Below the pieces are notes generated by a model. The model worked only from the letters and a program-made list of their open reading frames with translations. It was not told the origin of the DNA and did not search any database. Positions 7,421 through 62,550 of a DNA stretch of 64,000 nt are shown in pieces. Position numbers and translations under genes: made by a program. Origin of the DNA: an uncultured Bacteroidales bacterium (GTDB lineage Bacteria > Bacteroidota > Bacteroidia > Bacteroidales > JAADJA01); NCBI GenBank assembly GCA_963749345.1, contig CAVVMO010000001.1:1011336-1075335 (forward strand). The letters are read 5' to 3'. Positions within the stretch are counted from its first letter, which is position 1. Each line of letters starts with the position of its first letter.

Positions 7421-7448
7421 ATGAGAGGAAAAAATTATTTTTGTCCCG

Positions 7449-45932: not shown

Positions 45933-45953
45933 ATCAACAAAAACCAGAAAAAA

Positions 45954-46415: not shown

Positions 46416-46453
46416 ATATTGATTTTCCTGATTAAATTTGGGGCTATTGTTTA

Positions 46454-46516: not shown

Positions 46517-46706
46517 AGGGAATCAAACCTAATTACAATATATTTAAACCCTCTGAAATCCAGTCAAAATTATCACAGCACATCAAATTAGAATTCTGCC
46601 AATATTAACTTTTAGATCAATTTACACTGTATTTACTAACAATTAATTTCAGGCAATTTAGTCACTGCCTTAGTAACATTCTCCCTACTTTTGAAAAAAA
46701 TTAAGA

Positions 46707-49091
46707 ATGGCTCAGCCTTGTATTCATTGTGGGGAAGATTGTGGAAACTATCCGGTAATGTGGAATGATAAACCCTTTTGTTGCAATGGATGCAAAACCG
46801 TTTACCAGATCCTGAATGAAAAAGACCTCAAGCAATATTATGAAATTGCACCCATGCCGGGCATCAGGGTTGAAACCCAGGAGCAGGGAGAAAAATACGC
46901 CTATCTCGATCTTGATGAGATCAAAACCAAATTACTCGATTTCTCGGATGGAGGGATCAGCAAAATTACCTTCTTTGTTCCAGCCATTCATTGCGCTTCC
47001 TGCATTTGGCTGCTCGAACACCTCAGTATATTAAATCCTTCCATCACCCAATCCTTTGTTAATTTTCCAAAGAAAGAAGTCGTCATTAATTTTAAAGATA
47101 ATGAAATAACCCTTCGGGAAATTGTTGAATTGCTGGCTTCTATTCACTACATACCTGAAATAACCCTTGACCATCTCCAAAAAAGAAAAAAAACAAAAGG
47201 AAACAAGCAACTCATATTAAAGATAGGCATCACAGGCTTCGTGCTCATGAATGTGATGATGTATAATTTTCCCGAATACCTGCCGGGCGGGGAGTTACTC
47301 GAACCAGGATTTAAAAAGTTTTTTGGCTGGCTGAGTCTTATATTATCCATTCCTGTTGTTGTTTATTGCGCCAATGATTATTTCTTATCTTCCGTTAAAA
47401 GCCTCCGTCACAAAATCATCAGCATCGACCTGCCTATTGCTTTAGGAATATTAGCGCTTTTCCTTCAGAGTGCTTTTGACATTGTAACTGAGCAGGGAAC
47501 CGGTTACCTCGATTCCCTTTCAGGGCTTGTTTTTTTTATGCTGGTCGGAAAATGGTACCAGGGTAAAACTTACCAGGCACTATCGTTCGAGCGGGATTAT
47601 AAATCCTATTTTCCGGTGGCTGTAACTAAAATTGAACACGGGAAAGAATTTGTCATACCTCTTAATGAACTCAAAACCGGCGATCATATCCTCATCCGCA
47701 ATAAGGAGCTAATACCCGCTGATTCAAAGATTGTCGCGGGTGATGGTAATATTGATTATAGTTTTGTTACCGGCGAATCGCTTCCGGTTCGGAAGAACAA
47801 AGGGGATACGGTTTTTGCAGGCGGACGGCAGGCAGGAAGTTCAGTTGAACTGGAAATCATAAAAGTAGTGGAACAAAGCTATTTAACCCAGCTATGGAAC
47901 CAGGACAACAAAAGTGGCAAAGATGATCCGGGGATGAAAAGGATCATTGACGGGGTCAGTCAGTATTTCACTGTCATAATCCTTATTATCGCCGTAGCCG
48001 CAGGTATTTACTGGTTGTTCAACGACCCGTCCAAAGCTATCTTTGCTTTTACTTCGGTGTTGATTGTAGCCTGTCCGTGTGCCCTTGCTCTTACCCTGCC
48101 TTTTACCTTCGGGAGTACCATGCGTTATTTTGGACGGAACGGTTTCTACCTGAAAAAAACCCAGGTTGTTGAAGAGCTTTTCAAGGCCAACACCATTGTA
48201 TTTGACAAAACAGGTACCATCACCCATACCAAATCTATGGAAATTGATTTTGTTGGGCAATCACTTACAACGGACCAGATACGAATGATCAAATCCCTCG
48301 TCAGGCATTCAACCCATCCTTTAAGCGCTGCACTGTTTCAAAAGCTCGACGGAGATCAATATTATTCGGTGGATCATTTTAAGGAAATCCCTGGACTTGG
48401 CATTACGGGTGAAATAAATGGAGTAAAGATCAATGTGGGTTCACACAAGTTTGTCACCGGGAAGGAAGATGAAGAAAAAGGTCTTAAAACCCAGGTCTAT
48501 ATTTTTATAGGTGATAAGGTTCTCGGCTACTTCCAGCTTGAGAACAGTTACCGCAAAGGACTCAAAGAAATGATCACCCGCTTTTCCAAAAAATACGACC
48601 TCCATTTGTTAACAGGCGACAATGAAGCTGAAAAGACAAACCTTTTGCCATTGTTTCTGGTGGAAGACCGCATCCATTTTAACCAGTCACCCACCGACAA
48701 GCTGGCTTATGTAAAAAACCTTAAGAGTCAGGGCAAAAAAGTTTTGATGATCGGCGACGGGCTGAATGATGCCGGCGCTCTCAACGAAAGCAATGTGGGC
48801 ATCACCATTGCCGATGATGTGTATCATTTCTCCCCTGCCTGCGATGCCATCCTCGAATCATCAGGATTTGGTAAGCTCGAAAAATTTATCCGATTTACCC
48901 ACACCAGCATGAACATTGCCTATATCAGTTTCACGCTTTCTTTCATCTACAATGTTTTTGGCCTCTGGTTCGCGGTTCAGGGGTTGCTAACACCCATCTT
49001 CGCTGCTATCCTTATGCCCATCAGTTCTGTTTCGGTTGTAGCTTTTGCTACCCTTTCGATTGCTTTCCTTTCAAAGAGATCGCTGAAATAA
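46707..49091 (+). CDS. ccoI: Heavy-metal (copper) translocating P-type ATPase, CcoI/FixI type
   Basis: 794-aa ORF. The N-terminal Cys box is CIHCGEDCG...FCCNGCKTVYQIL. It also has CPC (VACPCALAL), DKTGT, HP (STHPLS) and GDGLNDAGAL. Confidence 0.85.
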   Translation: MAQPCIHCGEDCGNYPVMWNDKPFCCNGCKTVYQILNEKDLKQYYEIAPMPGIRVETQEQGEKYAYLDLDEIKTKLLDFSDGGISKITFFVPAIHCASCIWLLEHLSILNPSITQSFVNFPKKEVVINFKDNEITLREIVELLASIHYIPEITLDHLQKRKKTKGNKQLILKIGITGFVLMNVMMYNFPEYLPGGELLEPGFKKFFGWLSLILSIPVVVYCANDYFLSSVKSLRHKIISIDLPIALGILALFLQSAFDIVTEQGTGYLDSLSGLVFFMLVGKWYQGKTYQALSFERDYKSYFPVAVTKIEHGKEFVIPLNELKTGDHILIRNKELIPADSKIVAGDGNIDYSFVTGESLPVRKNKGDTVFAGGRQAGSSVELEIIKVVEQSYLTQLWNQDNKSGKDDPGMKRIIDGVSQYFTVIILIIAVAAGIYWLFNDPSKAIFAFTSVLIVACPCALALTLPFTFGSTMRYFGRNGFYLKKTQVVEELFKANTIVFDKTGTITHTKSMEIDFVGQSLTTDQIRMIKSLVRHSTHPLSAALFQKLDGDQYYSVDHFKEIPGLGITGEINGVKINVGSHKFVTGKEDEEKGLKTQVYIFIGDKVLGYFQLENSYRKGLKEMITRFSKKYDLHLLTGDNEAEKTNLLPLFLVEDRIHFNQSPTDKLAYVKNLKSQGKKVLMIGDGLNDAGALNESNVGITIADDVYHFSPACDAILESSGFGKLEKFIRFTHTSMNIAYISFTLSFIYNVFGLWFAVQGLLTPIFAAILMPISSVSVVAFATLSIAFLSKRSLK

Positions 49092-49284
49092 GTAACCGCT
49101 GAATCGCTATGAAGATGTTGCACTGCAAGTAATCTATTGCAAGTTTAAAAATAGGCGCTATCCGTGTCATAAAAATATGGATAAAATAAAATGCAACTTA
49201 TTAATTAGTGCAAATCCAGAATTTAGTTGATACTGATTTTTCTTTATTAGCGTGCATTCTATCAAAATGCCAAAACCATATTTG

Positions 49285-49326
49285 AAAGAAAAAACAAAGC
49301 GTGCAGCTACAATCCACACGCTTTTG
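49285..49326 (-). terminator. Rho-independent terminator downstream of the 1405-aa gene (hairpin usable in both directions)
   Basis: Stem AAGCGTG (49297-49303) pairs with CACGCTT (49317-49323). It is followed on the minus strand by TGTTTTTTCTTTC and on the plus strand by TTG. Confidence 0.6.
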
Positions 49327-49377
49327 TCTACTTTATAAAGTCTTCGCACTTTTATTTAGGCATTTATAATTTTTACT

Positions 49378-52300
49378 TTAATCTTTAATACAACGAACAA
49401 CAAAACCATGTACTTTGGTTTCATAAGATCGTCCATATCCTCCACTTGATTTGTTAAGGTTTCGATAAATTGATTGTGTTTCCGAAAATTCAGTCGAAGT
49501 CCAGATATAGGTTGATAATTTTATCTCAGCAAAAACAGGACCAATAGGACTTACTTGACGACTTAAACCTGCACCAAGGAAAGATAAACCACTTGAGTTT
49601 GTTGCTCCAGTATTTGGCTCATCCCAATGTAAATATCCAGTTTCTTTAATCATCCCGCCTACATTACTTCCTGCCGGCCAACCCCAAGAATAACATTCTA
49701 AAGTCGGATCAAGAAAAGTCATTAAAGTGCAATATTCGTCATCAGTTGGCATATGCCAGCCTTCAGGACAAATTCCAACATTACTCTCACCTGTACTATA
49801 TTGCATTGCTTCATTCCATTGATATAATCCGCCATAAATCAAACAATTATTTTCATTATTTTCATAACAATACTTTTGGATTATACCATCATCTGATTGA
49901 TCAATTGGGAAATCAATCATGGTTCCGATATTCATGTTTTCAGCCATCCAGCATTGAGTTCCTATTTGGACAGTTGAATAAGATTGGCCATCACGAATGT
50001 CAATAATTCCTTCACCACAAGGTACAGATGGAATTGTAACTGTTATAATAATACCTTTCCCACTATTAGGTTTCCACTTAATAATTTTATCATCAATTTC
50101 TACCTGGCTGTTCATATTATAGTCTCCATTATAGTAACCTGTTAAACCCAATTGGGTAAGCCATACATCATTTTTATCCAGGTTATTTATCAGTCCGTCG
50201 GAATTTCCATCAGCAGCGATCATACCCCAAACATTTGGAGTTAGCTGACTTTGCGAATGAGAACCGCCAAGACCAGTGTTTGAAGAAACTGTAAAATCAT
50301 AATTATAAATACCGGCTGATCCTGTAATAGGAAAAGAAGATATAATCGGCAAATGATTCCGATGAATGACCCTCAGATAAAAATTTTCCGGCGGTAATTC
50401 AGGAAAATCTAGAGGAGAGGTTCCGTCAATATCCCTTACGACTCCATCATTAAATACAAATGCAGCTTTTCGGCTTATTGCAACATAATTTGTATCATTG
50501 CCTGAGATTAATTTTTGAAGTATTTCAATAAGCACCCAGTCGATAATATTAACGGATGGGATATTTATTACAGATTCATTTCCCAGGTATTGCCATGGCG
50601 CTGAATTATATGGCTGATCTAACGGTAAATATCCTAATGCATTTAAGAAGTTTGACATTTGACCGCTGAAATATGGCCCCTCAAGAAAAACTTTAATATT
50701 TATTGCTTTTGAAAGGGTGGTAAATGTATACGGACCTACCCATGCACTATTGCCATAGTTATTACTACAATTAGCTCTAACATAAAAATCATATTCAGTG
50801 TTTGCTAATAAGTTATTATAGTTGTATGGATTAGATGAAATATTGGATGCTGTTGGCACACCTGTTGGTATGAAACCAGCAGTGTCCAATTCAATTTCCC
50901 ATGTTGCAGCACTTCCGTTCTCTATCCAACCTAAGTTTGCAGAATAATGAGTTATGTTGGTAACAAACAAGTTAGAAGGTTCGGGACAAATACCTTCATC
51001 AACTGAAATGTTGTCAATAAATAGGTCAGAGCCAAAACCGGATATTCCATTACACTTTATTAAAATATTATCCCCAAAAGAAGAAAGATCAATAATTCCT
51101 GAAGAAATAAAGCTACCAGGTATCTGGTATGCTGCACCATCATTTGAATTAAAGTCCGGACCTCCAAGCGACCAAACTTTCGACCAACTAAAAGCATTGT
51201 CATCTGAAACAAAAACTTCTAAAGAATCATTCAATAACGTAGGATAGGGTATGTGAGACCAGAAAAATTCAAGTGAAGGAGTTTCTAGAGCTGATATATC
51301 AATAGTGTTTGTTATCATTAAACAATTATTGTTTTGATTGACAGACCAGAAGTTTGCTAATGCACTTCCTTGGGTAGAGGAAGGGGCATAATGCATCCAA
51401 CAAAAGGACCCTCCACTGAGGTCGAAACATAGTGGTGGCCAGGTAGAAAATGTTTCATAAAATGGTGCTATGAAAGAAGGGCCTTTGGTTGAAAATGACT
51501 TTGGTCCCGACCAAAAACTGGTTTCCTCCTCAGTGCAGACGGACCTAACATAAAAATCATAATTTGTACATGAAGTCAAATTTTCATAATTATATGAATT
51601 TGATTGCACACCGGTAACTGTTGGGATTCCTGTAGGAATAAAACCTATAGGTCCAAATTCTATATCCCATGATGTAGCTGAACCGGTTTCTAACCATTGA
51701 AGAGTTGCTGTTGTTTCCATCACATCAATGGCATCAAGTTCAATTGGAGCAGAACATGAATAAAAAGAAATATTGTCTAAAAGAAGATAAACTTGATTTG
51801 GTTCGCTGTAACCGTGAAAACCGATAAAATATACACCGCTGGTAGTGGGTGTAATTGTGCCAGTTCCATCATGCCATACATTGCTATATTGAATTGCTGC
51901 ATCATTGAAAATGGGACCATTAGTCATTGCTACTGAATTCGCTTCTAATCCCCACTTTACTTCTAATTTCTCAAAATAAATTGAAGAATTGTTTGTATAT
52001 TTAAAATTCAAAGTATATGTTGTTCCAGATGAAAGCCAGAATCCTGGGGTAAAGAACCAGTCATCCATTGCCAGGGAGGAATTATATCTCACATACAAAA
52101 CATTCGGTAAAGAAGGGGGATTTAATGCATTTGCATATGTTTGCCAGTAATAGGGATCTATATTGGTATTTTCATAGGTTGTGCAATTCGGTAACGCAGG
52201 TGCTGTTACCGAATCGAAATTCTGGAAATAGGGAAGCGAGACTATCTGACATATCGTAATGAAAGTCCATACAGGTCCATTTGTTGTAAGAGTACCATTG

Positions 52301-53595
52301 TGCTCAATAACCTGCCATTGATATGTGCTACCATAATCTGCTGTATATGTGTAGGAGCCAGTAGAACCAGCAATACCACCAGTAACAACCTGAACCATGC
52401 TTCCAGGATGCCCGAATTTAAGATCATAGGTTACAGTATTTGCTCCAAATGACCATGTTAAATTACCACTAATTTCAATATTTGCTGCTCCATCCGCTGG
52501 ACTGGGATTGAATGGATCAAAGGGAGTTCCCCCAACAGGTGGTATATAAGTAAAGATCAATCCACTGCTAGGATATACCGTGTTTGACATTATGCATGAT
52601 GCTGTATTGGAAGTACCTGCGGTCGTGGATGACCAGTTTGTAGTTGTAGTTCTATTATTATAATCATTATTATTTGCTCCTCTAATTCCAACCTGACCGG
52701 TTGTTAAAGCTGAATACCCAACATGATTACCATAGACAATTTCAGCTTTATTGGATGTTTCGTAAAGTTTGATTTGGAAATTATATAGTTCTCCATAATA
52801 AGTAGACCCATATCTTTTGAAATTTTTGAACTGAATTACATGAATCCGATTTGGGGAAGAACCCAAAGTTTGCGTTCTGATTTCAGCAGTATAAGCAATA
52901 CAGGTTTGCAAAGTACCTGTCGCTGTGGCATTGGCAGATAAAGTGATTGTCTGTGCTCCCGCGTTAAATGAAACAATGGTGGCGCCTGCTGGTATATTTG
53001 CAGAGGTAACTTGTTTCCCTACAACAATACCACCAAAATGAGATACAGACGACAGAACAGGGCTTCCCAAAGTTGTGGTTGCCTGGAAAACAAAACGGCC
53101 ATCATTATCCCGACTAAAAGCAGCGATTGCACCAGCATAATCTGTGGTCGCTGATATTGCCGTATAATTGTTATTAAGTGGAAGAGTTGTGCCAAATGTT
53201 ATATAACCATTAGAATTTATATTAAAATTAGTGTACGGCAAATCATTAAAAGTAAATGTAAATGGTATCGTTTGCATAGAATAATTAACATCATCCAAGT
53301 AATTAGTTCCACTGCCAGGAATTGAACTAGCAACCACAGTTCCTCCTGTAATTAGAGTATAAGTACCCAATGATTGACTAAATGTGTAGCTGGTGGCAGC
53401 ATCAGAGGGATAATCTATTTTAATGATTAAACCAGTTGTATTCTCAATAGAATTCAGTGTTGAATTTTCTATTATTTTATCATTGCCTGAATTTTGATAA
53501 TCTTTATATACGTCATTTTGAGCTTGAATTGTAATAATTGATAAAATGACCATTACCAAAAACGAAACAAGTGATAGCTTTAAAAGTTTTTTCAT
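49378..53595 (-). CDS. Giant secreted multidomain surface protein: two adhesin-like modules each followed by an FN3-like domain, a dockerin-like module and a C-terminal FISUMP (Fibrobacter succinogenes major paralogous, TIGR02145-like) domain
   Basis: 1405-aa ORF with a signal peptide. Two ~90-aa FN3-like repeats are present: CSAPIELDAIDVMETTATLQWLETGSATSWDIEFGPIGFIPTG...YDFYVRSVC at nt ~51487-51756, and CPEPSNLFVTNITHYSANLGWIENGSAATWEIELDTAGFIPTG...YDFYVRANC at nt ~50716-50988. The dockerin-type loops are DGNSDGLINNLD and DYNMNSQVEIDD. The C-terminus (DGQSYSTVQIGTQCWMAENMNIG...YGGLYQWNEAM...CPEGWHMPTDDEY...ATNSSGLSFLGAG...IWTSTE...HGFVVRCIKD) matches the FISUMP pattern. Confidence 0.8.
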   Translation of the reverse strand: MKKLLKLSLVSFLVMVILSIITIQAQNDVYKDYQNSGNDKIIENSTLNSIENTTGLIIKIDYPSDAATSYTFSQSLGTYTLITGGTVVASSIPGSGTNYLDDVNYSMQTIPFTFTFNDLPYTNFNINSNGYITFGTTLPLNNNYTAISATTDYAGAIAAFSRDNDGRFVFQATTTLGSPVLSSVSHFGGIVVGKQVTSANIPAGATIVSFNAGAQTITLSANATATGTLQTCIAYTAEIRTQTLGSSPNRIHVIQFKNFKRYGSTYYGELYNFQIKLYETSNKAEIVYGNHVGYSALTTGQVGIRGANNNDYNNRTTTTNWSSTTAGTSNTASCIMSNTVYPSSGLIFTYIPPVGGTPFDPFNPSPADGAANIEISGNLTWSFGANTVTYDLKFGHPGSMVQVVTGGIAGSTGSYTYTADYGSTYQWQVIEHNGTLTTNGPVWTFITICQIVSLPYFQNFDSVTAPALPNCTTYENTNIDPYYWQTYANALNPPSLPNVLYVRYNSSLAMDDWFFTPGFWLSSGTTYTLNFKYTNNSSIYFEKLEVKWGLEANSVAMTNGPIFNDAAIQYSNVWHDGTGTITPTTSGVYFIGFHGYSEPNQVYLLLDNISFYSCSAPIELDAIDVMETTATLQWLETGSATSWDIEFGPIGFIPTGIPTVTGVQSNSYNYENLTSCTNYDFYVRSVCTEEETSFWSGPKSFSTKGPSFIAPFYETFSTWPPLCFDLSGGSFCWMHYAPSSTQGSALANFWSVNQNNNCLMITNTIDISALETPSLEFFWSHIPYPTLLNDSLEVFVSDDNAFSWSKVWSLGGPDFNSNDGAAYQIPGSFISSGIIDLSSFGDNILIKCNGISGFGSDLFIDNISVDEGICPEPSNLFVTNITHYSANLGWIENGSAATWEIELDTAGFIPTGVPTASNISSNPYNYNNLLANTEYDFYVRANCSNNYGNSAWVGPYTFTTLSKAINIKVFLEGPYFSGQMSNFLNALGYLPLDQPYNSAPWQYLGNESVINIPSVNIIDWVLIEILQKLISGNDTNYVAISRKAAFVFNDGVVRDIDGTSPLDFPELPPENFYLRVIHRNHLPIISSFPITGSAGIYNYDFTVSSNTGLGGSHSQSQLTPNVWGMIAADGNSDGLINNLDKNDVWLTQLGLTGYYNGDYNMNSQVEIDDKIIKWKPNSGKGIIITVTIPSVPCGEGIIDIRDGQSYSTVQIGTQCWMAENMNIGTMIDFPIDQSDDGIIQKYCYENNENNCLIYGGLYQWNEAMQYSTGESNVGICPEGWHMPTDDEYCTLMTFLDPTLECYSWGWPAGSNVGGMIKETGYLHWDEPNTGATNSSGLSFLGAGLSRQVSPIGPVFAEIKLSTYIWTSTEFSETQSIYRNLNKSSGGYGRSYETKVHGFVVRCIKD

Positions 53596-53650
53596 TGATT
53601 TATAAAATTTATTGATTTAAAAATAAAAAAAAGTCTATCATCTTAAAATT

Positions 53651-53683
53651 CATCCTACCCACTTTTGTAAGTAGGGTAGGATA
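53651..53683 (-). terminator. Strong hairpin between the small ORF and the giant gene (weak U-tract; possible terminator)
   Basis: ATCCTACCCACT (53652-53663) pairs with AGTAGGGTAGGAT (53670-53682), giving 12 bp with one bulged A. On the minus strand it is followed by GAATTTTAAG. Confidence 0.4.
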
Positions 53684-53735
53684 AAAAGTAGTTATTATTT
53701 GCGAAGAATGTTTGCTATATATCATTTAAAACATT

Positions 53736-53981
53736 TTAAATGCTTATTTCACCTCCACCATAAATCCCCTTCAAGCTTGCATCCGGATTGTAAACCATGA
53801 GGAATGTATTACCGGCAGCGCCAAGCTGGGCAGGGGTAAATTCATCTTCTTTGCCGGGCTGAAGTTCGGGGGCGGTTTCAGGTACAGGATTATCTGCCTT
53901 GGCAGCAGTGTAGAAGCGCAACGGGGCATCACCAGTGTTTTCGACGGTAAATACTGAGGCTGCAGTAAACCCGTCTTTCAT
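53736..53981 (-). CDS. Small acidic orphan protein (81 aa from the ATG at 53981), GC-rich; possibly the 3' remnant of a larger gene
   Basis: Sequence MKDGFTAASVFTVENTGDAPLRFYTAAKADNPVPETAPELQPGKEDEFTPAQLGAAGNTFLMVYNPDASLKGIYGGGEISI. By hand count, 122 of 246 nt are G+C (about 50%), against visibly AT-richer flanks. The supplied ORF extends to 54233 through AT-rich sequence. Confidence 0.4.
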   Translation of the reverse strand: MKDGFTAASVFTVENTGDAPLRFYTAAKADNPVPETAPELQPGKEDEFTPAQLGAAGNTFLMVYNPDASLKGIYGGGEISI

Positions 53982-54269
53982 GATGATCACCTTTGCGGCA
54001 GAATTTACGGAACCGGAGAATGCAAGGACACATTGAGGGTTTTTTATAGTATTGCAGATATTAAAATTATGGGTTATCAATGTTTTAAATTTGATGCAAG
54101 TAAAATTATAATCGAAAAATTGCTTAAAAACAATATGATCAAACTGGTGTAGGAAGGGCATGAATTTTTTGAGGAAATGATGTGTTTGGATTAGGAAACT
54201 ATTGATTATTTTTAAACCCGGTAAATAAATCATGATTCTGAATCCATTTATTTAAATAAAAATCATTCG

Positions 54270-56369
54270 GTGACGGAAGGAAAACATAATTCGGGAAGTT
54301 GGCCTATACTTATCAATCCTTATATATTGGCATTGGTGGCTTCCTTAATAATTATTTTGCTTCTGCCAATGGACTTCCCTAAATATAAAATTGAAATAAT
54401 TGATAACCAGGTGCATCAAAGTAATAATTTCAGGATTTTTGATGATCTGGATAATAATGGTTATAGCGATGAAATAAACCTTGCGAACAACTTTATCGGC
54501 TCAACCGGATTATCCGTCAGATTTAATCCACACAACATAATAGAACAATGGAATTTTCAGGGAAGCAATATTTTTGTTTCTAAGGAAAACTTAATTATTG
54601 GTGACTTTGATAACAATTTGATTAAAGAAATATATGGTTTTACAATTTCAAACGACAGTATTTTTCTAAACTGGGTACCAAATATTACAGGTAAGGAAGT
54701 CAAACAGAGATTCATCACTAAGGTGCGTATAAAAAAAGGTAAATGCGACCCGGTTAATATTCCTCTTGAAATGGACGACCTGGATGGAGATGGTTACAAG
54801 GAATTGCTTTTTGGCATCAATACCGGATTTTCAGTTCAGCCTAGAAATGTTTTTGCATATAACATTGTAAGCGACTCATTGAAACAAAGCCCCAAAAGTG
54901 CAGCTGCATTCATAGATATATTTCAGTACGATGTTACCGGTGATGGCTTGAATGAAATATTACTTTATACTTATTCTCCTGAAAATCTGCACGACACAGG
55001 ATATCAATACCACGACAGCAGCGCCTGGATGATGGTTCTTGACAGAAAACTGGAATATTTATTTCCCCCAATTGAGATCAAAGGACGCTGGGGAACAGTC
55101 ATGCCGATAATTTTCAGAAATACAGGTTTACAGCTGATCTTCGGAGCAATGCATTATTGGCGCGACACTAATCATATTGGAATGAAAATGATGCTGCTTG
55201 ACACAATAGGCAACATTATAAAAGAACAGGTTTGTGACCCAGTGCCACCCAATGCAACAATTAAATTTTTCCAAACCTTTAGCAAAAGAGGAGATTACGC
55301 AGTAATTTCAACCGGAAATGAAATTCGTATTTATGATCAGTTCCTTGATCTTGATAGGGAAATTCCCTTAAACCAAAGGATATCTTGTCAGCATCAAATG
55401 GATCTGGATTTGGATGGCAGCAATGAAATACTATTGTATGCTACCGATAATAAATTGAGAATTTTCAGAGAAAATATGAAGCATCCTGCGATAATAGATA
55501 TAAGTAATATGGCCGATGAATATAACACTGCATTTTCATTAGTTAAAGTACCCGGCTTGCTGCCATTAATTTCGATTTTTTCTAATAATAAATGGTATTT
55601 GATTTCGTATGCCCTTAATCATATGTTTTATTGGCGGTGGGCAATCTATGCTGCCATATATTTAAGTGTTTTAGTATTTACTTTATTCGTACAGAAAATC
55701 CAGCGTATTCAACTCCAGAGCAAGTACAATACCGAAAAGAAAATTACTGAGTTGCAGCTAAAGATTATAAAAAACCAGCTCGACCCGCATTTCGTACTCA
55801 ATGCCATTAATTCAATCACCAGTTCGGTTTCCAACCAAAAAAAGGAAGAAGCTACTGAACATTTGCAGCAATTCTCTCAAATGTACCGGTCGCTGGTTTT
55901 GTCATCGGACAAGATCACACGCACATTGACTGAGGAGATTGCTTTTACTGAAAACTACCTGAAAATGGAGCAGTTCAGGTTTAGCATGAAGTTTCAATAT
56001 TCCATTGTTATTGATCCGGCCATTGATACAACAATTGAAGTCCCCAAGATGATCGTTCAGTCGTACACTGAGAATGCCATTAAGCATGGATTGGCAGGCA
56101 GAAAGGAAGGAGGAGGCATACTTGAAATAATGGCTAAGCAATTTGACCAAAAGTTAATCCTTACCATCAAAGACAATGGAGGTGGAAGAAAAGAATCTGC
56201 ACAGGCAGGATCTACTTCAACCGGCAAAGGCGTTGAAATGATGAACAACCTCTACGATCTGTACTATAAAATAACCAACAGAAAAATTACGGGTGAAATA
56301 GTGGATTTATATGACGATGAAGAGAAATCAGCGGGAACAAGCGTTATCGTAACAATTCCAATTAATTAA
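54270..56369 (+). CDS. Sensor histidine kinase, LytS/His_kinase (PF06580-like) type, with an extracytoplasmic FG-GAP/VCBS-like beta-propeller sensor domain
   Basis: 699-aa ORF with a GTG start and a first TM segment. The ~400-aa external region carries Ca-binding-type loops (DDLDNNGYSDEINL, GDFDNNLIKEIY, DDLDGDGYKELLF, DVTGDGLNEILLY, DLDLDGSNEILLY). A second TM segment (WAIYAAIYLSVLVFTLFV) follows, then the H-box (LKIIKNQLDPHFVLNAINSI) and the ATPase domain (ENAIKHG, DNGGG, STGKGVEMMN). Confidence 0.8.
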   Translation: MTEGKHNSGSWPILINPYILALVASLIIILLLPMDFPKYKIEIIDNQVHQSNNFRIFDDLDNNGYSDEINLANNFIGSTGLSVRFNPHNIIEQWNFQGSNIFVSKENLIIGDFDNNLIKEIYGFTISNDSIFLNWVPNITGKEVKQRFITKVRIKKGKCDPVNIPLEMDDLDGDGYKELLFGINTGFSVQPRNVFAYNIVSDSLKQSPKSAAAFIDIFQYDVTGDGLNEILLYTYSPENLHDTGYQYHDSSAWMMVLDRKLEYLFPPIEIKGRWGTVMPIIFRNTGLQLIFGAMHYWRDTNHIGMKMMLLDTIGNIIKEQVCDPVPPNATIKFFQTFSKRGDYAVISTGNEIRIYDQFLDLDREIPLNQRISCQHQMDLDLDGSNEILLYATDNKLRIFRENMKHPAIIDISNMADEYNTAFSLVKVPGLLPLISIFSNNKWYLISYALNHMFYWRWAIYAAIYLSVLVFTLFVQKIQRIQLQSKYNTEKKITELQLKIIKNQLDPHFVLNAINSITSSVSNQKKEEATEHLQQFSQMYRSLVLSSDKITRTLTEEIAFTENYLKMEQFRFSMKFQYSIVIDPAIDTTIEVPKMIVQSYTENAIKHGLAGRKEGGGILEIMAKQFDQKLILTIKDNGGGRKESAQAGSTSTGKGVEMMNNLYDLYYKITNRKITGEIVDLYDDEEKSAGTSVIVTIPIN

Positions 56370-56377
56370 ACTGAAAT

Positions 56378-57127
56378 ATGCAAAACCGGCAACTAAGGAC
56401 AATTATAGTAGATGATGAGGAAAAGGCAATAAATAATCTGGAAACCCTATTGAATAATTTCCCGCAGGTTCAGATCATAGATAAATCAACAGATCCTGAA
56501 AAGGCATTGGGTAAAATACTGCTCCAAAAACCCGATTTACTATTTATGGATATTCAAATGCCGGATAAAACAGGGTTTGAAATCGTATCAGAAGTTTATC
56601 GGAGTGGATTAAGACCCGACATTATATTTGTAACAGCTTTTGATAAGTATGCCATCACTGCCATTCGTTATGCTGCATTCGATTACCTGCTGAAACCAGT
56701 TAACAAGGAAGAACTTAAAGATGCGTTGGAACGGTTACTGAAAAAAACAACTGAAACAGATAAGGAGGAACAGATTAAAATACTTATCGAGAAAACGAGT
56801 AGACATAAAATCAAATTCTCAAATGCAGGCGGATTCATTCTTATTAAACCCGAGGATATTATTTACATCGAGGCCGACTGGAATTATTCCGAAATTTATT
56901 TCAGCAAGGAAATAAAGGAAGTCGTTACAATGAATATCGGAAGTGTTGAAGAACTATTACCAAAAGAAGATTTTTACAGGATCAATCGTTCAATAATCAT
57001 TAATATTAACTACCTTTCGAGGGTAATTCGTAAAAAGCTTTTGGCCATACTTATTAAAGATGGCCAGGAATACCAGTTCAAAATACCAATATTAAAAATC
57101 CGGGGACTGGAAAGGTTTTTAGCTTAA
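56378..57127 (+). CDS. LytTR-family (LytR/AlgR) response regulator
   Basis: 249-aa ORF. The receiver domain reads IIVDDEEKAI...DLLFMDIQMPDKTGFE...FVTAFDKYA, and the LytTR domain reads IIYIEADWNYSEIYF...FYRINRSIIININYL. It starts 8 nt after the kinase stop codon. Confidence 0.9.
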   Translation: MQNRQLRTIIVDDEEKAINNLETLLNNFPQVQIIDKSTDPEKALGKILLQKPDLLFMDIQMPDKTGFEIVSEVYRSGLRPDIIFVTAFDKYAITAIRYAAFDYLLKPVNKEELKDALERLLKKTTETDKEEQIKILIEKTSRHKIKFSNAGGFILIKPEDIIYIEADWNYSEIYFSKEIKEVVTMNIGSVEELLPKEDFYRINRSIIININYLSRVIRKKLLAILIKDGQEYQFKIPILKIRGLERFLA

Positions 57128-57322
57128 GGAATAATATTAATCTATCAGATCCTGTAACTTCCCTAGCAGCCGCAAGTTTATAACTTTTATCAATAAGTAA
57201 CTTATTTTCCTTTATTTAAAACAAATTATGTTTTGGTTAATAATTATTTTTCAAATCACTAATTCTTAATTGAATGATGATTTGTTAGATTGTTAAAATC
57301 TAATTTTTGGAAGACTTTTTAT

Positions 57323-57358
57323 GAAAAAAAAGAGACTACCTTTGTCAGGTAATCTCTT
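57323..57358 (-). terminator. Strong Rho-independent terminator immediately 3' of the tRNA-like gene
   Basis: On the minus strand, AAGAGATTACC-tgacaaa-GGTAGTCTCTT forms an 11-bp stem with one G-U pair, followed by TTTTTTTT. Confidence 0.75.
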
Positions 57359-57362
57359 GTTA

Positions 57363-57435
57363 GCAGGGAGGAGGGGCTCGAACCCTCATCAGTCTAGTTA
57401 GTTCTAGAATATCTATCCAGTTGACTACTTCCTGC
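57363..57435 (-). tRNA. tRNA-like sequence, non-canonical (probable tRNA pseudogene or relic, or an atypical tRNA-derived RNA)
   Basis: Minus-strand sequence: GCAGGAAGTAGTCAACTGGATAGATATTCTAGAACTAACTAGACTGATGAGGGTTCGAGCCCCTCCTCCCTGC. The T arm is perfect (GAGGG-TTCGAGC-CCCTC), and U8/A9/A14/GG-like positions are present if G1 is treated as a -1 base. The acceptor helix is 8 bp with one A-C mismatch and the D stem has only 3 bp. The only good anticodon stem (TCTAG/CTAGA) encloses a 6-nt loop, AACTAA, which contains CTA. No CCA is encoded. Confidence 0.45.
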
Positions 57436-57440
57436 TTGTT

Positions 57441-57465
57441 AGGACTGCAGCAACAGTCCTTTTTT
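57441..57465 (+). terminator. Hairpin plus T-run (plus-strand terminator-like), 5 nt from the 5' end of the tRNA-like gene
   Basis: AGGACTG-cagcaa-CAGTCCT followed by TTTTT. Confidence 0.5.
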
Positions 57466-58129
57466 AATCCAAAACAAAAGTACTATCAGTCAAAGGTACA
57501 ATGCAACTTCATTTATAAACATTTGATTGTTGTTAAAATGCTATCCCCTTGAATTCAACTGAAGTAGATTGCGGAAAGATGATTTAGTAACAATGTATTG
57601 ATAAAAAAATGAGGCTTTCGTATAATTGAATAATGATATACCAAAGTCAGGCAGCCAAGGCCTTCCATGAATTTTTGTTTGGACAAGAATGTAATGACTA
57701 TAATTAAATTTTTTCAAAAATCAATAAAAACATATAAAATTTAATGACGGGGTTATTTAATAGTTCCTTTTTTATTCGTAATAAAATCTCCCCGTGTCAC
57801 CGCAAGTTTGTAATTTGTTGCAAGAAATACCAGCGCCTGTGTATGTCACATAGGATCCCCCCGCTGGCGCAAGCATCTCCCCCTTTAACATTAAAATATT
57901 TCCTCATTAAATTCAAATATTCTTAAATTTGCCTTACTCAAAAGCAGGAAATGAAGCAACGAACCTTTTCATACTTTTTAATTTCACTAAGGGAAAATGT
58001 AAATTTTATTCCCGTTTACACACCTGTATGGAACAAAAACGGGAATAAAGTTCATGTTATAGTAACGTAAACGTTCATTGTAAAAAAAGACAACAGACAA
58101 AAATAAATTAACCATTTAATTGTATAATT

Positions 58130-58930
58130 ATGAAAAAGAACTACAGAATTTGGATTTACTCATTAACATTAGTGGGTTTTATATTAGTTCTTGCAATTGG
58201 TTGTAAGAAAGATGAATCGCCATCAAAGAAAACTCCATTAATCACCTGGGCAAATCCTGAAGATATTGTTTATGGTACCTTGCTAAGCGCGACCCAGCTA
58301 AACGCCACAGCTGATGTAGAAGGTACCTTTTCTTACACTCCCCAGATTGGCACATTACTGGATGCAGGCGCTAATCAGGTTTTGAAAGTGTCCTTTACGC
58401 CAGCCGATGCCGAAGCCAACGATACCGCAAGCAAAACAGTGAAAATTAATGTACTTTATATAGGCGATAGCTATAGAGGTGGTAAAGTAGCCTATATTTT
58501 ACAAGCAGGAGACCCAGGCTATGCAGCTGCAGAAGCACACGGTTTAATAGCCGCACCAGGCGACCAAAGTACAGGCATACAATGGTATAATGGAAGCTAT
58601 ACAACAACAGGAGCAACTGCAACAGCATTAGGCACGGGGAATGACAACACAGCCACTATTGTTGCCAGTCAGGGAGCAGGCAGCTATGCAGCGAAATTGT
58701 GTTCTGATTTGGTATTAGGTGGCTATTCCGACTGGTTTTTACCCAGTAAAGATGAGTTAAATAAGCTCTACATAAACAGAGCAGCGATTGGTGGTTTTGC
58801 TAATGAAAACTATTGGAGTTCCAGCGAGGCCGGCACCAACGCCGCATGGAAGCAGAGCTTCACCACTGGCATGCAGGGTGGCCTCTATAAAAACAACGAC
58901 TACTATGTGCGCTCGGTTCGGGCTTTTTAA
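58130..58930 (+). CDS. Lipoprotein with an Ig-like N-terminal region and a C-terminal DUF1566 (Lcl C-terminal-like) domain
   Basis: 266-aa ORF with lipobox LAIGC. The C-terminus (GGYSDWFLPSKDELNKLY...NYWSSSE...AWKQSF...YYVRSVRAF) fits the DUF1566 pattern. Confidence 0.75.
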   Translation: MKKNYRIWIYSLTLVGFILVLAIGCKKDESPSKKTPLITWANPEDIVYGTLLSATQLNATADVEGTFSYTPQIGTLLDAGANQVLKVSFTPADAEANDTASKTVKINVLYIGDSYRGGKVAYILQAGDPGYAAAEAHGLIAAPGDQSTGIQWYNGSYTTTGATATALGTGNDNTATIVASQGAGSYAAKLCSDLVLGGYSDWFLPSKDELNKLYINRAAIGGFANENYWSSSEAGTNAAWKQSFTTGMQGGLYKNNDYYVRSVRAF

Positions 58931-59195
58931 CTATTTAACTATTTTGTGTTTTCAAGGAAACTGTAATTGCAGTTTTACGCTCGCATCCAGCCCGTCAGCC
59001 AACTGGCAAATTATTTAATTTGCACATTGAACAATCAGCACATTGATTAAACCGTTTTGTGACATCAAAAATGTAATTAGCTAATTTTGTTCATTGTTAA
59101 ATTCATGGGATTTAAATTGTAAAAAACCTCACTGCTTCAAGCCCTTGCTTGTACAGTAACATAACTCGTACTGTTAAAGTCCCTTATTTGTCTTT

Positions 59196-59245
59196 CCTCC
59201 GTGTTCCTCCGTGTCCCTCCATGCTCTCTGTATCTCGGTGGTTTT
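59196..59245. repeat. Five tandem ~10-nt units of the C-rich/GTG family (CCTCCGTGTT CCTCCGTGTC CCTCCATGCT CTCTGTATCT CGGTGGTTTT)
   Basis: Direct reading. The array ends 57 nt upstream of the IS3 left end. Confidence 0.8.
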
Positions 59246-59344
59246 CTTGTCTGATTATTATTTCCATTCCTCTGCTGATTTTAGATTATTGTGTTTGTCC
59301 ATGACTGAAATAGGTTGACCAAAAATAAGATAAAAAGTCAACTT

Positions 59345-59767
59345 ATGGAAACAAAGCAAAAAGGGAAAAAGGGGTTAAGGCTCCGACGTCATTTCAGTGT
59401 AGGGATAAAGAAACAAGTAGTAAGGGATATTGAAAAAGGAAAGTGTACTGTATTGGAAGCCAGTCGTGAGTTGGGAGTAAGTTTTCAAACTGTGTACCTC
59501 TGGCTTTATAAGTATAGTTTATATTTGCAAAAAAACAAGATACTTATAGTGGAAGATAAAAGCGAAGCCTATCGCAGCAAAGACCTTGAGAAACGGATAT
59601 TAGAATTGGAAGCTGTTTTGGGGCGCAAGCAAATGGAAATTGATTTGCTCAACAAAGTAATTGAACTGGCCAACGGAGAATACAAGACAGATTTAAAAAA
59701 AAGCATGTTAAAGAAGCCCTTGGATGGTTCCGGCTCAATAAAGGGATCAAGCACTTCTACAAGATGA
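59345..59767 (+). CDS. IS3 transposase OrfA (HTH plus leucine-zipper region)
   Basis: METKQKGKKGLRLRRHFSVGIKKQVVRDIEKGKCTVLEASRELGVSFQTVYLWLYKY..., followed by a coiled-coil region. The ATG at 59345 is preferred over the TTG at 59315, which lies inside IRL. Confidence 0.8.
   Translation: METKQKGKKGLRLRRHFSVGIKKQVVRDIEKGKCTVLEASRELGVSFQTVYLWLYKYSLYLQKNKILIVEDKSEAYRSKDLEKRILELEAVLGRKQMEIDLLNKVIELANGEYKTDLKKSMLKKPLDGSGSIKGSSTSTR
59695..59701 (+). promoter_or_regulatory. Programmed -1 ribosomal frameshift heptamer A_AAA_AAA in orfA
   Basis: The orfA frame reads TTA AAA AAA AGC. The -1 frame is open from here (KKHVKEALGWFRLNKGIKHFYK) into the orfB ATG at 59764, which would give an OrfAB fusion. 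Confidence 0.6.
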
Positions 59768-60696
59768 AAGAGTTATATTCGATAGCCAACATAAGTAAGC
59801 AGGCACTGTGGAAGCATGACAGGCGGCAGGAAACAGTCACAGCAATCACAGGGCAGATGGTAGATATAATGGAAGACATCAGACAACGACATAAACGTAT
59901 GGGATGCAGGCGGATGTACTATGCGACTCAGGGAACTTTACCTGTAGGCAGGGATCTGTTCGAGAAAATCGGTTTTGCCAATGGTTTCAAGTTGCGGCGT
60001 AAACCAAATACAATAAAAACCACCTGGGGTCAAAGAGTAGAGGTTCATCCCAACCTGATCGAAGGCAAAATACTCACTGACATCAACCAGGTGTGGCAAA
60101 GCGACATTTTCTACATCAAGATAGAAGGAAAAGACTATTACGGAGTAAGCATAGAAGATGTATACTCAAGAAAAATGCTATCCATGCACATTTCAAAAAG
60201 CCTGCAGGCAGAACAAGTTGAGAACGCCTTAAAAAAGGCAATCAAAGTAAGAAAGAACATGGATTTAACCGGCTGTATCTTTCATTCGGACCGTGGCAGC
60301 CAATACATCAGTACCCGGATAAAAAAACTCTTGCGCGACACACAAATGCAAATCAGTATGTGCAAAATACCGCAGGAGAATGCCTATGTCGAACGTGTGC
60401 AGGGAACCCTCAAGTACGAATACTTGTATGAATTTGATTTAACCGAAAAGAATTTGCCTAACACGATTCGTAAAATACTGGAATATTATAACAAGGAGCG
60501 CCCTCATAGTAACTTAAAGATGAATAATCCTGAAAGATTTGAATTAGAAGTTGAAAAGCTTGTTGAAAAACAACGTCCAAAACTCCAGATATACAAATGG
60601 ACTCATGGGGTATCAACAAAAGAAGATGATATTAACAAAAAAGAAAAAAGTAGCAAAAAAGAAAAAATGAATACAATAAAAACAAATAGTATTTAA
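59764..60696 (+). CDS. IS3 transposase OrfB (rve/DDE integrase core)
   Basis: 310-aa ORF containing WQSDIFYI (D), FHSDRGSQYIS (D) and ENAYVERVQGTLKYE (E). Its ATG overlaps the orfA stop (ATGA). Confidence 0.9.
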   Translation: MKELYSIANISKQALWKHDRRQETVTAITGQMVDIMEDIRQRHKRMGCRRMYYATQGTLPVGRDLFEKIGFANGFKLRRKPNTIKTTWGQRVEVHPNLIEGKILTDINQVWQSDIFYIKIEGKDYYGVSIEDVYSRKMLSMHISKSLQAEQVENALKKAIKVRKNMDLTGCIFHSDRGSQYISTRIKKLLRDTQMQISMCKIPQENAYVERVQGTLKYEYLYEFDLTEKNLPNTIRKILEYYNKERPHSNLKMNNPERFELEVEKLVEKQRPKLQIYKWTHGVSTKEDDINKKEKSSKKEKMNTIKTNSI

Positions 60697-60805
60697 TTGA
60701 AAAAAGTCAACCTATTTCAGGCAAGTACAGTTAATCAGATTTCATATATCCTATTTCGGATTTCAAAATTTATTTTACTTTTGCCACGTATTCAGGTCGA
60801 AAAAT

Positions 60806-62431
60806 ATGCGTCGTTTACTTACATTGCTTGCAGTGTTATTGTGTTTTGTTGGTTTTACCCAAACCGATACGGCAACTGTCATGTATTACAATGTTCTTAA
60901 CTATCCAGGTAGCACCGGGTCGCGGGTTCAGTATTTCAGAAAAATTAATCAATACATCAAACCCGATTTCGTTTTGATTACCGAATTGGTTTCTAACGCC
61001 GGAGCAGTCACCCTTCTGCAGGATGGCTTAAACGTTTTTGGCGAAACAAAGTATCAAAAAGCAACTTTCATTGATGGCCCCGATACCGACAACATGCTTT
61101 TCTACAATAGTGATAAGTTTACCCTCTATTCACAGGATACCATCGGAACCTTGCCCCGCAGGATGAATGAATATGTTCTCTATTACAACTTACAGCAACC
61201 GGCAGAAGATACTGTATTTTTCTATTTCTATGTGGCCCATCTGAAAGCCAGTACTGGGTTTGAATCTGAGCGCCTGGAAGAAGTCATGAAGTTTAAAAAT
61301 TATGTCAACAGCAAACTCAACATTGAAAACATGATTTTCGGTGGCGACCTGAACTTTTACAATGCTTCATCTGAGCCGGCTTACTGGGCCCTTATCAACG
61401 ATGGATTATACCCCCTCAATGATGTTTTGCCCGCAGGCGACTGGCACGAAGATCCTGCTTATGCATCTATTCATACCCAAAGTCCCAGGACAGCATCATT
61501 TGGCGGTGGGGCAAATGGCGGAATGGATGACCGTTTTGATTTTATGTTATTCACGGATGACATTCTTTCAGGATCAAACAATTTAAGTTACATTAATAAT
61601 TCCATTACTGCATTTGGTAACGATGGCCAGCATTTTAATGTGGCGCTTACTGATTCCCCGGTAAATACTTCACTTCCCGATTCCATAATTCAGGCTCTGT
61701 ACTATATGTCCGACCACCTGCCCGTTTTCAGCAAATTTATTATCCAGCCTGATGTTGTTTTTCAGAATTACGAACTTTCCTTAAAGGTATTTCTGGAAGG
61801 CCCTTTCAATGGTTCAGAAATGAGTACCGGCATAAATCCTGTTTTGCCACTAAGCGATCCCTATGTTGGAGCGCCCTGGTACGCAACCGACAGTGAACCT
61901 GTTGTCAGCATTCCAAACTCTGATATTGTCGATTGGGTTTTAGCTGAACTAAGGGATGCTCCCGATGCTGTATCTGCCGGTTCTGGAACAATCATCAGCC
62001 GGCAAACAGGATTTTTATTAAGGGATGGTACAATAAAAGGATTGGATGGCATGTCAAATCTACAATTCAACAATTCAATAATTCATCAATTATTTCTTGT
62101 CATCTGGCACCGAAATCACCTCGGAGTGATGAGCGCTTTCCCTCTCAGTTTGACAGGTAATTTCTTTAATTACGACTTTACAACCGGCACAGACAAAGCC
62201 TACCTCAACGGACAGAAACAGCTGGCTCCCGGAATTTGGGGGATGATTGCCGGCGATTGCGATGCCAACAGTGTGGTGAATGAAAATGACAAATCCTTAA
62301 TCTGGAAAAATCAAGGGGGGAATGCAGGTTATCTGCCTGGCGATCTTAATTTCAACGGGCAGGCTAACAATCCGGATAAAAACGAATTTATAATTATCAA
62401 CTTTCTGAATCACTCCAAAATTCCTCAGTAG
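60806..62431 (+). CDS. Secreted endonuclease/exonuclease/phosphatase (EEP) fold protein with a C-terminal dockerin-like module shared with the 1405-aa protein
   Basis: 541-aa ORF with a signal peptide. EEP-type blocks are VMYYNVLNYPG, FVLITEL, YVAHLKAS, IFGGDLNF, GGMDDRFDFML and MSDHLPVF. The C-terminal ~215 aa (nt ~61772-62428) begin KVFLEGPF and contain DCDANSVVNEND and DLNFNGQANNPD. Confidence 0.75.
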   Translation: MRRLLTLLAVLLCFVGFTQTDTATVMYYNVLNYPGSTGSRVQYFRKINQYIKPDFVLITELVSNAGAVTLLQDGLNVFGETKYQKATFIDGPDTDNMLFYNSDKFTLYSQDTIGTLPRRMNEYVLYYNLQQPAEDTVFFYFYVAHLKASTGFESERLEEVMKFKNYVNSKLNIENMIFGGDLNFYNASSEPAYWALINDGLYPLNDVLPAGDWHEDPAYASIHTQSPRTASFGGGANGGMDDRFDFMLFTDDILSGSNNLSYINNSITAFGNDGQHFNVALTDSPVNTSLPDSIIQALYYMSDHLPVFSKFIIQPDVVFQNYELSLKVFLEGPFNGSEMSTGINPVLPLSDPYVGAPWYATDSEPVVSIPNSDIVDWVLAELRDAPDAVSAGSGTIISRQTGFLLRDGTIKGLDGMSNLQFNNSIIHQLFLVIWHRNHLGVMSAFPLSLTGNFFNYDFTTGTDKAYLNGQKQLAPGIWGMIAGDCDANSVVNENDKSLIWKNQGGNAGYLPGDLNFNGQANNPDKNEFIIINFLNHSKIPQ

Positions 62432-62550
62432 AAGTAAAATAGATTTGCACCCAACTTCTTTTTCTCCCTTTGTTCGTAAGTTCATTTGTTAAAAATTTGT
62501 TAAATTTCCGGATAAATTTATTTTTGTATCGAAATATTTAAATAAATTTA

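Follow-up and report, generated by a model that had tools for sequence, protein, structure and literature searches.

In the genome of an uncultured Bacteroidales bacterium, ccoI, a maturation gene of the cbb3 oxidase, lies 13.4 kb away from ccoS and ccoN, and the locus raises the question of what stands between them: one acquired element or something more composite. We examined a window of 64,000 nt (positions 1,011,336-1,075,335 of contig CAVVMO010000001.1, assembly GCA_963749345.1), and coordinates below are those of the window unless a comparison locus is named. A first-pass annotation had described the 13.4 kb as an acquired or variable region that splits functionally coupled genes. The open reading frame (ORF) map and domain scans agree with it on the separation of ccoI from ccoS-ccoN and on the gene inventory of the segment (Table 1). 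The notion of an acquired or variable region also finds support, with four amendments: the segment consists of several layers and not one unit; the secreted-protein gene next to ccoS, here called p541, is not recent cargo; the GC-rich orphan ORF is the remnant of a larger gene; and the tRNA-like relic is internal and marks no island border. We conclude that the interval between ccoI and the cbb3 genes is very probably a chromosomal hot spot, a permissive slot between independently transcribed core genes and not one mobile element. The 13.4-kb segment itself is a composite of at least four events of differing age and not a single accessory unit.

Results

The core genes can be assigned from their domains. 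CcoI/FixI is a P1B-type ATPase with the ATPase-cat_bd domain, and the FixS-domain protein CcoS/FixS adjoins ccoN. Relatives of ccoI were scanned with one genome per species, giving 80 loci, 72 of which were informative (enough downstream DNA). The gap between ccoI and ccoS is 98-388 bp, with a median of 168 bp, in 66 of the 72, so the view in the first-pass annotation that ccoI-ccoS-ccoN is usually contiguous in Bacteroidota is correct for the wider family. One locus, L068, has a gap of 3.3 kb, and no ccoS or ccoN was found downstream of ccoI in five (10 kb available in three, 1.7-3.9 kb in two). Set against these gaps, a separation of 13.4 kb as in the window is far beyond chance. The closest genomes are L068 (metagenome-assembled genome (MAG) CAVPJF01) and L166, a contig from ENA that belongs to the same lineage. 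Both share 91-96% nucleotide identity with the window over ccoI and the gene just upstream, and L068 is 93.9% identical across 10 kb upstream.

Adjacency is the norm in the wider family but not in the immediate clade. Orthologues of p541 (at least 57% identity, range 57-96%) are found directly upstream of ccoS in 8/8 informative loci (L068, L166, L171, L172, L083, L085, L092 and L093), and ccoI and ccoS are therefore never strictly adjacent in this clade. Distant members of the p541 family (55% identity or less) never occur directly upstream of ccoS. Judged by this synteny, p541 is a clade-level fixed neighbour of ccoS and not recent cargo.

The fold of p541 was examined by modelling. Pfam gives no match above threshold for p541 itself, and its homologues carry PF03372. 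An AlphaFold2 model built with 46 homologues (pLDDT 90.4) matches TDP2, nocturnin, the Bacteroides structure 3MPR and DNase I in Foldseek (E ~1e-12, target-normalised TM-score up to 0.76), and the motifs GGDLNF and SDHLPV are invariant across the 46 homologues. A search of the PDB with the p541 sequence returned designer PPR proteins, which were judged spurious; Foldseek on the model settled the fold. On this predicted structure the earlier label of a secreted EEP-fold enzyme is correct.

Variability is confined to the stretch before p541. Lineages diverge right after the ccoI stop codon and reconverge ~60 nt before p541 at a conserved TAnnTTTG-type block, so the true variable slot is 49092-60744. 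Its size is 11.65 kb in the window, ~1.5 kb in L068 (DUF1566 gene only), ~3.6 kb in L166 (a private 2-kb insert and the DUF1566 gene) and 5.6 kb in L171. The last holds a Type III restriction-modification system between ccoI and p541-ccoS (L171 3851-9278: MTase_III 1e-197, a PDC-S13/Bro-N protein and REase_III 2e-299). In L172 metabolic genes precede p541-ccoS. The 5' end of this locus and the 3' end of L001 are collinear, and in L001 ccoI precedes other metabolic genes. This suggests a slot of the L001/L172 lineage that would contain ~18 kb of metabolic genes.

Two side observations concern these loci. The L166 insert (5994-8036) lies upstream of the DUF1566 gene and is bounded by an imperfect 38-nt direct repeat (79%); its 135-aa ORF was scanned against PHROGs and PADLOC, with no match in either. 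In L001 (4336-14289) and L015 (12637-22312) ccoI is followed by genes for a PolB-like exonuclease, an MnmC-like methyltransferase and a PMT_2 glycosyltransferase, which stand in inverted order in one relative to the other, with no ccoS within 10 kb of ccoI.

Table 1. Features of the locus in window coordinates, from left to right.
Feature	Position	Strand	Details
Gene upstream of ccoI	44664-45710
IS200/IS605-type insertion, 867 bp	45737-46603	+	TnpA ORF 45954-46415 (153 aa), transpos_IS200 E 1e-18
ccoI/fixI, copper-translocating P-type ATPase	46707-49091	+	Pfam E1-E2_ATPase, Hydrolase, ATPase-cat_bd (N-terminal), HMA; left core anchor
Variable slot	49092-60744		from the ccoI stop codon to ~60 nt before p541; a different content in each lineage examined
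8.8-kb module	49092-57857		borders against L068; right end 57909 against L166; absent from both (blastn)
Terminator-like hairpin and T-run	49296-49324	-	after the 1405-aa gene, facing ccoI; 11-pair stem, 5 G-C
1405-aa secreted/surface protein	49378-53595	-	signal peptide, two fn3, C-terminal Fib_succ_major/FISUMP (E 2e-38)
orf165 (165 aa)	53736-54233	-	remnant; no family match
Conserved non-coding block	54021-54219	-	~200 nt
Three TTCCT motifs	54151-54197	-	exact 21-nt spacing; candidate LytTR sites
Sensor histidine kinase	54270-56369	+	His_kinase (PF06580), HATPase_c; N-terminal transmembrane segment, ~420-aa outer domain, membrane region
Receiver-LytTR response regulator	56378-57127	+	domain scan
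Terminator-like hairpin and T8 run	57330-57358	-	flanks the tRNA-like relic; structured region 57330-57460
tRNA-like relic	57362-57435	-	ARAGORN, relaxed thresholds only
Hairpin of the relic	57441-57460	-	flanks the tRNA-like relic
Older layer, DUF1566/Lcl_C gene and flanks	57858-59295	+	89-94% nucleotide identity to L068 and L166; absent from L171
Lcl_C/DUF1566 protein	58130-58930	+	lipobox LAIGC
IS3-family element, 1434 bp	59296-60729	+	intact; target duplication GTT 59293-59295 / 60730-60732
IS3 orfA	59315-59767	+	HTH_Tnp_1
IS3 orfB	59764-60696	+	rve; transpos_IS3 E 1e-48
p541, 541-aa secreted EEP-fold protein	60806-62431	+	right anchor of slot; conserved promoter-like block ~60 nt upstream
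Recombination junction patch, 250 bp	62258-62507		50-nt three-way identity profile; spans the 3' end of p541 and the putative promoter block of ccoS
ccoS upstream block	62470-62550	+	TTGTTAAAAATTTGTTAAAT ... TATTTTTGTATCGAAATA; kept in 16 lineages whatever lies upstream
ccoS/FixS	62551-62784	+	E 3e-22
ccoN, 5' part	~62789 to window end (64000)	+	right core flank with ccoS

Within the slot of the window, layers with different distributions can be told apart. The older layer carries the DUF1566 lipoprotein gene, whose Lcl_C domain and lipobox agree with the first-pass annotation, as does the ~1-kb gap without genes in front of it (57128-58129). A homologue of 80% identity lies in an unrelated context in L165 and the family has paralogues; Lcl was dropped as a stable orthologue marker owing to the L165 paralogue, and only copies of at least 90% identity were used. 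In L068 and L166 the Lcl and p541 genes are each split into two ORFs (for example L166 8132-8933 and 9181-10938), and tblastn identities there are far below the nucleotide identity, consistent with frameshift errors of assembly and not with real pseudogenes.

The second layer is an 8.8-kb module that adjoins ccoI. Where it sits in the window, L068 and L166 hold 94-178 bp of unrelated sequence. A check against the closest genomes had been proposed together with the original annotation: neither genome has the module or the IS3 element, so the gene set between ccoI and ccoS differs. A second proposed check, on composition, also came out in favour of the annotation. The module has a GC content of 35.8% against 40.0 +/- 1.8% for 3-kb background windows, and its tetranucleotide distance is 3-6 standard deviations (SD) over the mean, above every background window; the windows of p541 and ccoS-N are not deviant. 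Scans for a function or origin of the cargo were negative: PADLOC gave no significant matches to defence systems in the window, and PHROGs matched transposases only, together with a family without known function for Lcl.

The genes of the module describe a signalling unit beside a large surface protein. The kinase, with His_kinase (PF06580) and HATPase_c, adjoins a regulator with receiver and LytTR domains, which is the composition of a LytTR two-component system. The earlier description as an FG-GAP histidine kinase with a LytTR regulator holds for the kinase and LytTR domains; in the outer domain FG-GAP_3 is below threshold here (E 0.008) and is present in homologues. The closest kinase homologue among 5.8 billion proteins has 52% identity. 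Relatives of the kinase occur in unrelated contexts away from cco genes and keep one layout, in which kinase and LytTR regulator are divergent from a gene for a large secreted protein. That protein carries FISUMP/PKD in L163, Por_Secre_tail in L164 and Laminin_G_3 in L169/L170. The 1405-aa protein of the window forms a singleton cluster in the protein collection. It shares a ~200-aa domain with p541 (residues 965-1170 and 324-525, 39% identity, E 1e-41), which has no Pfam family match, opens with VFLEGP(Y/F) and closes with dockerin-like D/N-rich loops; stand-alone and tandem copies of this domain occur in loci L086-L091.

Between the divergent genes lies orf165, which had been called a GC-rich orphan ORF. 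It does lack a family match, yet it is GC-rich over its last 80 codons only (49.8%). Its last 87 codons have 75% amino-acid identity to the C-terminus of a 325-aa ORF in the homologous module L163, and ~1.1 kb of the L163 sequence is missing at this point. On this alignment orf165 is what a deletion has left of a larger gene, joined to a conserved non-coding region, the putative control region, that is read through as an ORF. The cassette has thus already decayed in part.

The putative control region is conserved. The ~200-nt block has 78% nucleotide identity to L163 3883-4081, whereas the kinases are only 52% identical in protein. The TTCCT motifs keep their positions and spacing in L163, a comparison of two sequences only. 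AgrA-type sites have a 9-bp repeat and a 12-bp spacer, a layout that the 21-nt start-to-start spacing of the candidates fits. An adjacent '156-aa ORF' in L163 has a 14-aa (42-nt) periodicity that suggests more repeats and not a real gene.

We infer that the 8.8-kb module is a self-contained sensor-to-adhesin cassette. The membrane kinase with its large outer domain would phosphorylate the LytTR regulator, which probably would bind the three TTCCT repeats and drive the divergent operon of the truncated small gene and the 1405-aa FISUMP protein.

The module could instead be ancestral to the species group and have been deleted in L068 and L166, in which case no gain would have occurred and the state in the window would be the older one. 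In favour of this, the empty sites with their unrelated sequence are imprecise, the module is already decaying by the 1.1-kb internal deletion that left orf165, which suggests that it is not brand new, and two close genomes were sampled. On the other hand, a deletion would leave the 94-178 bp of unrelated sequence in the relatives unexplained, the module departs in composition from the host background, L171 as the next outgroup has other cargo and no trace of the module, and the kinase lacks any homologue closer than 52%. We regard loss from the relatives as unlikely.

The module also contains a tRNA-like relic, a feature that could betray a site-specific island. In the island view the whole 13.4 kb would have entered as one integrative unit at a contiguous ccoI-ccoS, with the relic and the insertion sequence as its remains; the deviant module, the relic inside it and the sporadic distribution among relatives would fit. 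The relic has an 8-pair acceptor stem with one A-C mismatch, an intact T arm, a D stem of 3 pairs and a 6-nt anticodon loop, and with its hairpins (141 nt) a fold z-score of -6.55. It is the only relaxed ARAGORN match in the 64 kb, against 1 match when the window was shuffled ten times. Default ARAGORN finds no tRNA in the window, no RNA family there passes the gathering thresholds of Rfam, and an Rfam search of all families, tRNA included, gives no tRNA match at the relic even at E<=10. No exact copy of its T-arm/acceptor sequence occurs in 168 fetched loci or in the viral collection, and identity to eight tRNAs of the fetched loci is at most 61%. A standard tRNA gene was rejected on the 6-nt loop, in place of 7 nt, and on the failure of default ARAGORN and Rfam to detect it. 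The degenerate tRNA-like gene of the first-pass annotation thus stands as a relaxed ARAGORN match, but it lies 420-500 bp inside the 8.8-kb module and not at its border, with neither an integrase nor an att site beside it. The relic is therefore not the mark of a classical tRNA-targeted island, and it travelled with the module.

Tests for mobility were otherwise negative. Pfam and NCBIfam scans of the segment ORFs found no integrase or recombinase, only the IS3 and IS200 transposases. For att-like repeats, 49092 was compared with 57857/57909, and the outer borders with one another, using a repeat finder and local alignments under two scoring schemes against shuffles. None exceeded chance, in keeping with the first-pass observation of no convincing direct repeats at the borders. 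A GTAATYTRTTGCAAG match (13/15) was rejected as an att candidate, its score being within the shuffle range. Neither border falls at a tRNA or tmRNA gene 3' end: one is the ccoI stop codon, the other the p541 promoter. The layers differ in age and distribution, which largely refutes a single island, and p541 is conserved across the clade. With neither a recombinase nor border repeats above chance level, and with the relic internal, entry as one integrative island is extremely unlikely.

The youngest change within the slot is probably the insertion of an IS3-family element. The element shares all hallmarks of the family, with no notable difference: 24-nt inverted repeats with TG...CA ends (88% complementary), a 3-bp duplication, an HTH orfA and an rve orfB in the -1 frame, open from 59665, across an A8 run (59695-59702) of the slippery type. 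The element is absent from L068/L166, and L068 has a precise empty site with contiguous flanks. The claim of an intact element is confirmed by these repeats, the GTT duplication, the two 0/-1 ORFs and the empty site. IS3 is a late passenger in the slot and not its cause. A second insertion, of IS200/IS605 type, lies outside the 13.4 kb, between a PD40/OmpA-like gene and ccoI, and is likewise absent from L068 and L166; it is part of the same unstable neighbourhood, and ccoI is bracketed by two different young insertions. A composite transposon was ruled out, since IS3 and IS200 are unrelated single copies in the window.

The right flank of the slot appears to have a different history from the left. 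The nucleotide identity of L068 to the window is 93.9% for the gene upstream of ccoI, 95.5% for ccoI, 90.3% for p541 and 74.7% for ccoS-N. For L171 the values in the same order are 72.4%, 77.0%, 77.6% and 87.5%, and for L083, in which ccoI and its upstream gene are not covered, 77.7% for p541 and 99.1% for ccoS-N. The profile against L068 is 92-96% up to ~62257 and 42-82% from 62508, whilst that against L083 is 58-82% before ~62258 and 96-100% after. All three sequences agree across 62258-62507 and are identical at 62458-62507. When L171 is taken as the outgroup, its ccoS-N shows 87.6% identity to that of the window, 88.1% to that of L083 and 74.9% to that of L068, so the oxidase genes of L068/L166 are the outlier. 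The p541 of L083 is nearer to that of L171 (84%) than to that of the window.

These profiles are best explained by at least two replacement events with putative junctions in the same 250-bp patch. The pattern points to a foreign copy having replaced the oxidase operon in the L068/L166 lineage (xenologous replacement). The ccoS-ccoN copies of L068 (15681-17125) and L166 (11059-12505) are 74-75% identical to the window, as distant as those of far relatives, although the left flank of that lineage has 94-96% identity.

The arrangement could instead be a chimeric join at an insertion sequence or within the conserved cco genes. In favour of such an artefact are the abrupt identity switch at 62.3-62.5 kb, the MAG origin of the relatives and the occurrence of the IS3 transposase on three contigs, with many near-identical relatives on short contigs ending at it. 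The junction p541-ccoS-ccoN of the window recurs at 94-97% in the independent samples L081 and L082, and therefore is not chimeric; it is found in L083 too, where ccoS-ccoN 99% identical to that of the window stands behind a divergent p541. The IS3 element has its 3-bp duplication, and the empty site of the relatives is precise with both flanks contiguous. Exact-protein look-ups for ccoS, the regulator and Lcl gave short contigs only, with no independent confirmation of the module junctions at the DNA level. A short-read contig from another assembly has an identical Lcl gene with 420 bp upstream; its DNA was not read, and the right end of the module is placed there by position only. That the arrangement is an assembly artefact is so improbable that we set it aside.

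Immediately upstream of ccoS lies a block that is conserved across lineages. The ~75-nt block (TTGTTAAAAATTTGTTAAAT ... TATTTTTGTATCGAAATACCTAAAT) is also present in L002-L013, L068, L083, L085, L092, L093 and L166, although the ccoI proteins of those lineages are only ~70% identical. It is probably an autonomous promoter of ccoS-ccoN with a regulator site. The cbb3 genes are probably unaffected by the cargo of the slot, because ccoS appears to have its own conserved promoter block downstream of it.

The constant position of p541 (57-96% identity in its 8/8 loci), and the placement of the slot between a maturation gene and structural genes, might be taken as signs that the inserted genes serve the oxidase and that their position is selected, either through two-component sensing of O2 or copper for cco or through a role of p541 in oxidase biogenesis. 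The kinase-regulator module, however, adjoins secreted-protein genes elsewhere and never cco genes, and 66 relatives have a functional-looking cco locus without any of these genes. The upstream block of ccoS is retained, p541 is a secreted protein whose predicted fold is that of an EEP hydrolase and matches structures of nucleases and phosphatases, and common descent alone can account for synteny inside a single family-level clade. We know of no secreted EEP hydrolase in cbb3 biogenesis. A functional tie between the cargo and the oxidase is very unlikely.

Discussion

Hot spots of horizontal gene transfer (HGT) without mobile elements have been described by Oliveira, Touchon, Cury & Rocha (2017, Nat Commun 8:841; PMC5635113), and the hot-spot model predicts recombination in the flanking core genes (PMC5635113). 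The evidence for such a hot spot between ccoI and p541-ccoS can be summarised as (i) the same flanking core genes in the window, L068, L166 and L171; (ii) four different accessory contents in these four loci; (iii) incongruence of the flanks in a comparison of single genes, with ccoI at 95.5% and ccoS-N at 74.7% to L068 and the junction patch at 62258-62507. The likeness extends to rapid turnover without an integrase and to the kind of cargo, which includes a defence system (L171) and strain-specific surface proteins (the window). Published hot spots are statistical and derive from many complete genomes of one species, whereas the evidence here comes from ~8 metagenome-derived loci of more than one species. 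A further difference is that one border of the slot coincides with a conserved promoter patch.

We propose that, from a state in which ccoS-ccoN lay within ~170 bp of ccoI, as in the wider family, the gene of the secreted EEP-fold protein p541 became fixed directly upstream of ccoS in this clade. Each lineage would then have acquired cargo of its own in the slot from the ccoI stop codon to the p541 promoter. In this genome that would have taken three or more additional steps: the DUF1566 lipoprotein gene, then the foreign 8.8-kb module, then transposition of IS3. Exchange of cargo would most likely have proceeded by recombination in the conserved flanks without an integrase. The direction of events, recombination as the entry route, the LytTR sites and the autonomy of the promoters are what we infer; the patterns of presence and absence, the borders, the IS3 hallmarks, the deviant composition, the mosaic of identities and the recurring layout of the module are observed directly. 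Its position between transcription units that are independent of each other probably makes the site permissive, as indicated by the ccoS block, the p541 block and the strong terminator-like hairpin behind the 1405-aa gene.

Several points weigh against this proposal. The empty site is imprecise, in that the module replaces 94-178 bp of unrelated sequence, and no sequence was found that has the module between ccoI-like and Lcl-like flanks and might represent a donor. With two close genomes only, the module could be ancestral and lost from both. The unusual amino-acid make-up of a single giant gene could explain some of its deviant composition. The recombination route is deduced because alternatives are lacking and because the opposite border is a mosaic, in which either side of the junction at 62.3-62.5 kb may be native. 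Every comparator is a metagenome assembly, the broken-looking frames in L068/L166 are probably sequencing errors, and the L001/L172 layout is stitched from two different organisms.

Comparison with known systems places the locus among familiar ones. Like tRNA-linked genomic islands it has deviant composition, sporadic distribution and a tRNA-like sequence in the region. In contrast to them it has no integrase or att repeats, its relic is internal and degenerate, and it is a composite of separate events. The fixGHIS/ccoGHIS and ccoNOQP clusters of Proteobacteria share ccoI/fixI, ccoS/fixS and ccoN, and relatives of the window also have ccoO, Q, P, G and H. The order in this Bacteroidales group is ccoI, ccoS, fused ccoNO, Q, P, G, H; unlike in the Proteobacteria clusters, ccoI and ccoS act as separate units, with cargo in the intergenic gap between them.

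AgrA and other LytTR regulators recognise direct repeats that lie upstream of the promoters they act on (PMC4227749). In its kinase core and regulator domains the module matches the LytS/LytR and YehU/YehT systems, and its candidate sites are direct repeats upstream of the divergent operon. The sensor differs from LytS, which has the multi-pass 5TM-Lyt region, in its single N-terminal transmembrane segment and ~420-aa FG-GAP-like outer domain, and the module differs from both systems in its putative target, a giant FISUMP surface protein.

A more ambitious interpretation would see an integrase-free, dedicated cargo slot, kept throughout the clade, that swaps defence systems and sensor-controlled adhesin cassettes under the guidance of short conserved promoter patches, for example the 250-bp patch at p541/ccoS in which two independent junctions lie, with the kinase-LytTR-surface-protein unit and its conserved TTCCT x3 region as an undescribed portable 'sense-and-stick' cassette. 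We consider this unlikely. The locus is a case of well-known, ordinary bacterial genome variation and not a new system: textbook hot-spot turnover by recombination in flanking core genes. Its importance is modest, and it adds no new principle.

The kinase-LytTR-FISUMP cassette and the strict linkage of p541 to ccoS are small leads, and the block upstream of ccoS offers a possible handle on the oxygen-responsive regulator of this group. The slot also gives a defined site at which genes for strain-specific surface and defence functions can be sought in this uncultured Bacteroidales clade. For the oxidase, the locus indicates that the maturation gene and the oxidase operon can lie 13 kb apart without apparent harm, each with its own control region, and it advises caution in operon-based annotation of cbb3 genes in Bacteroidota.

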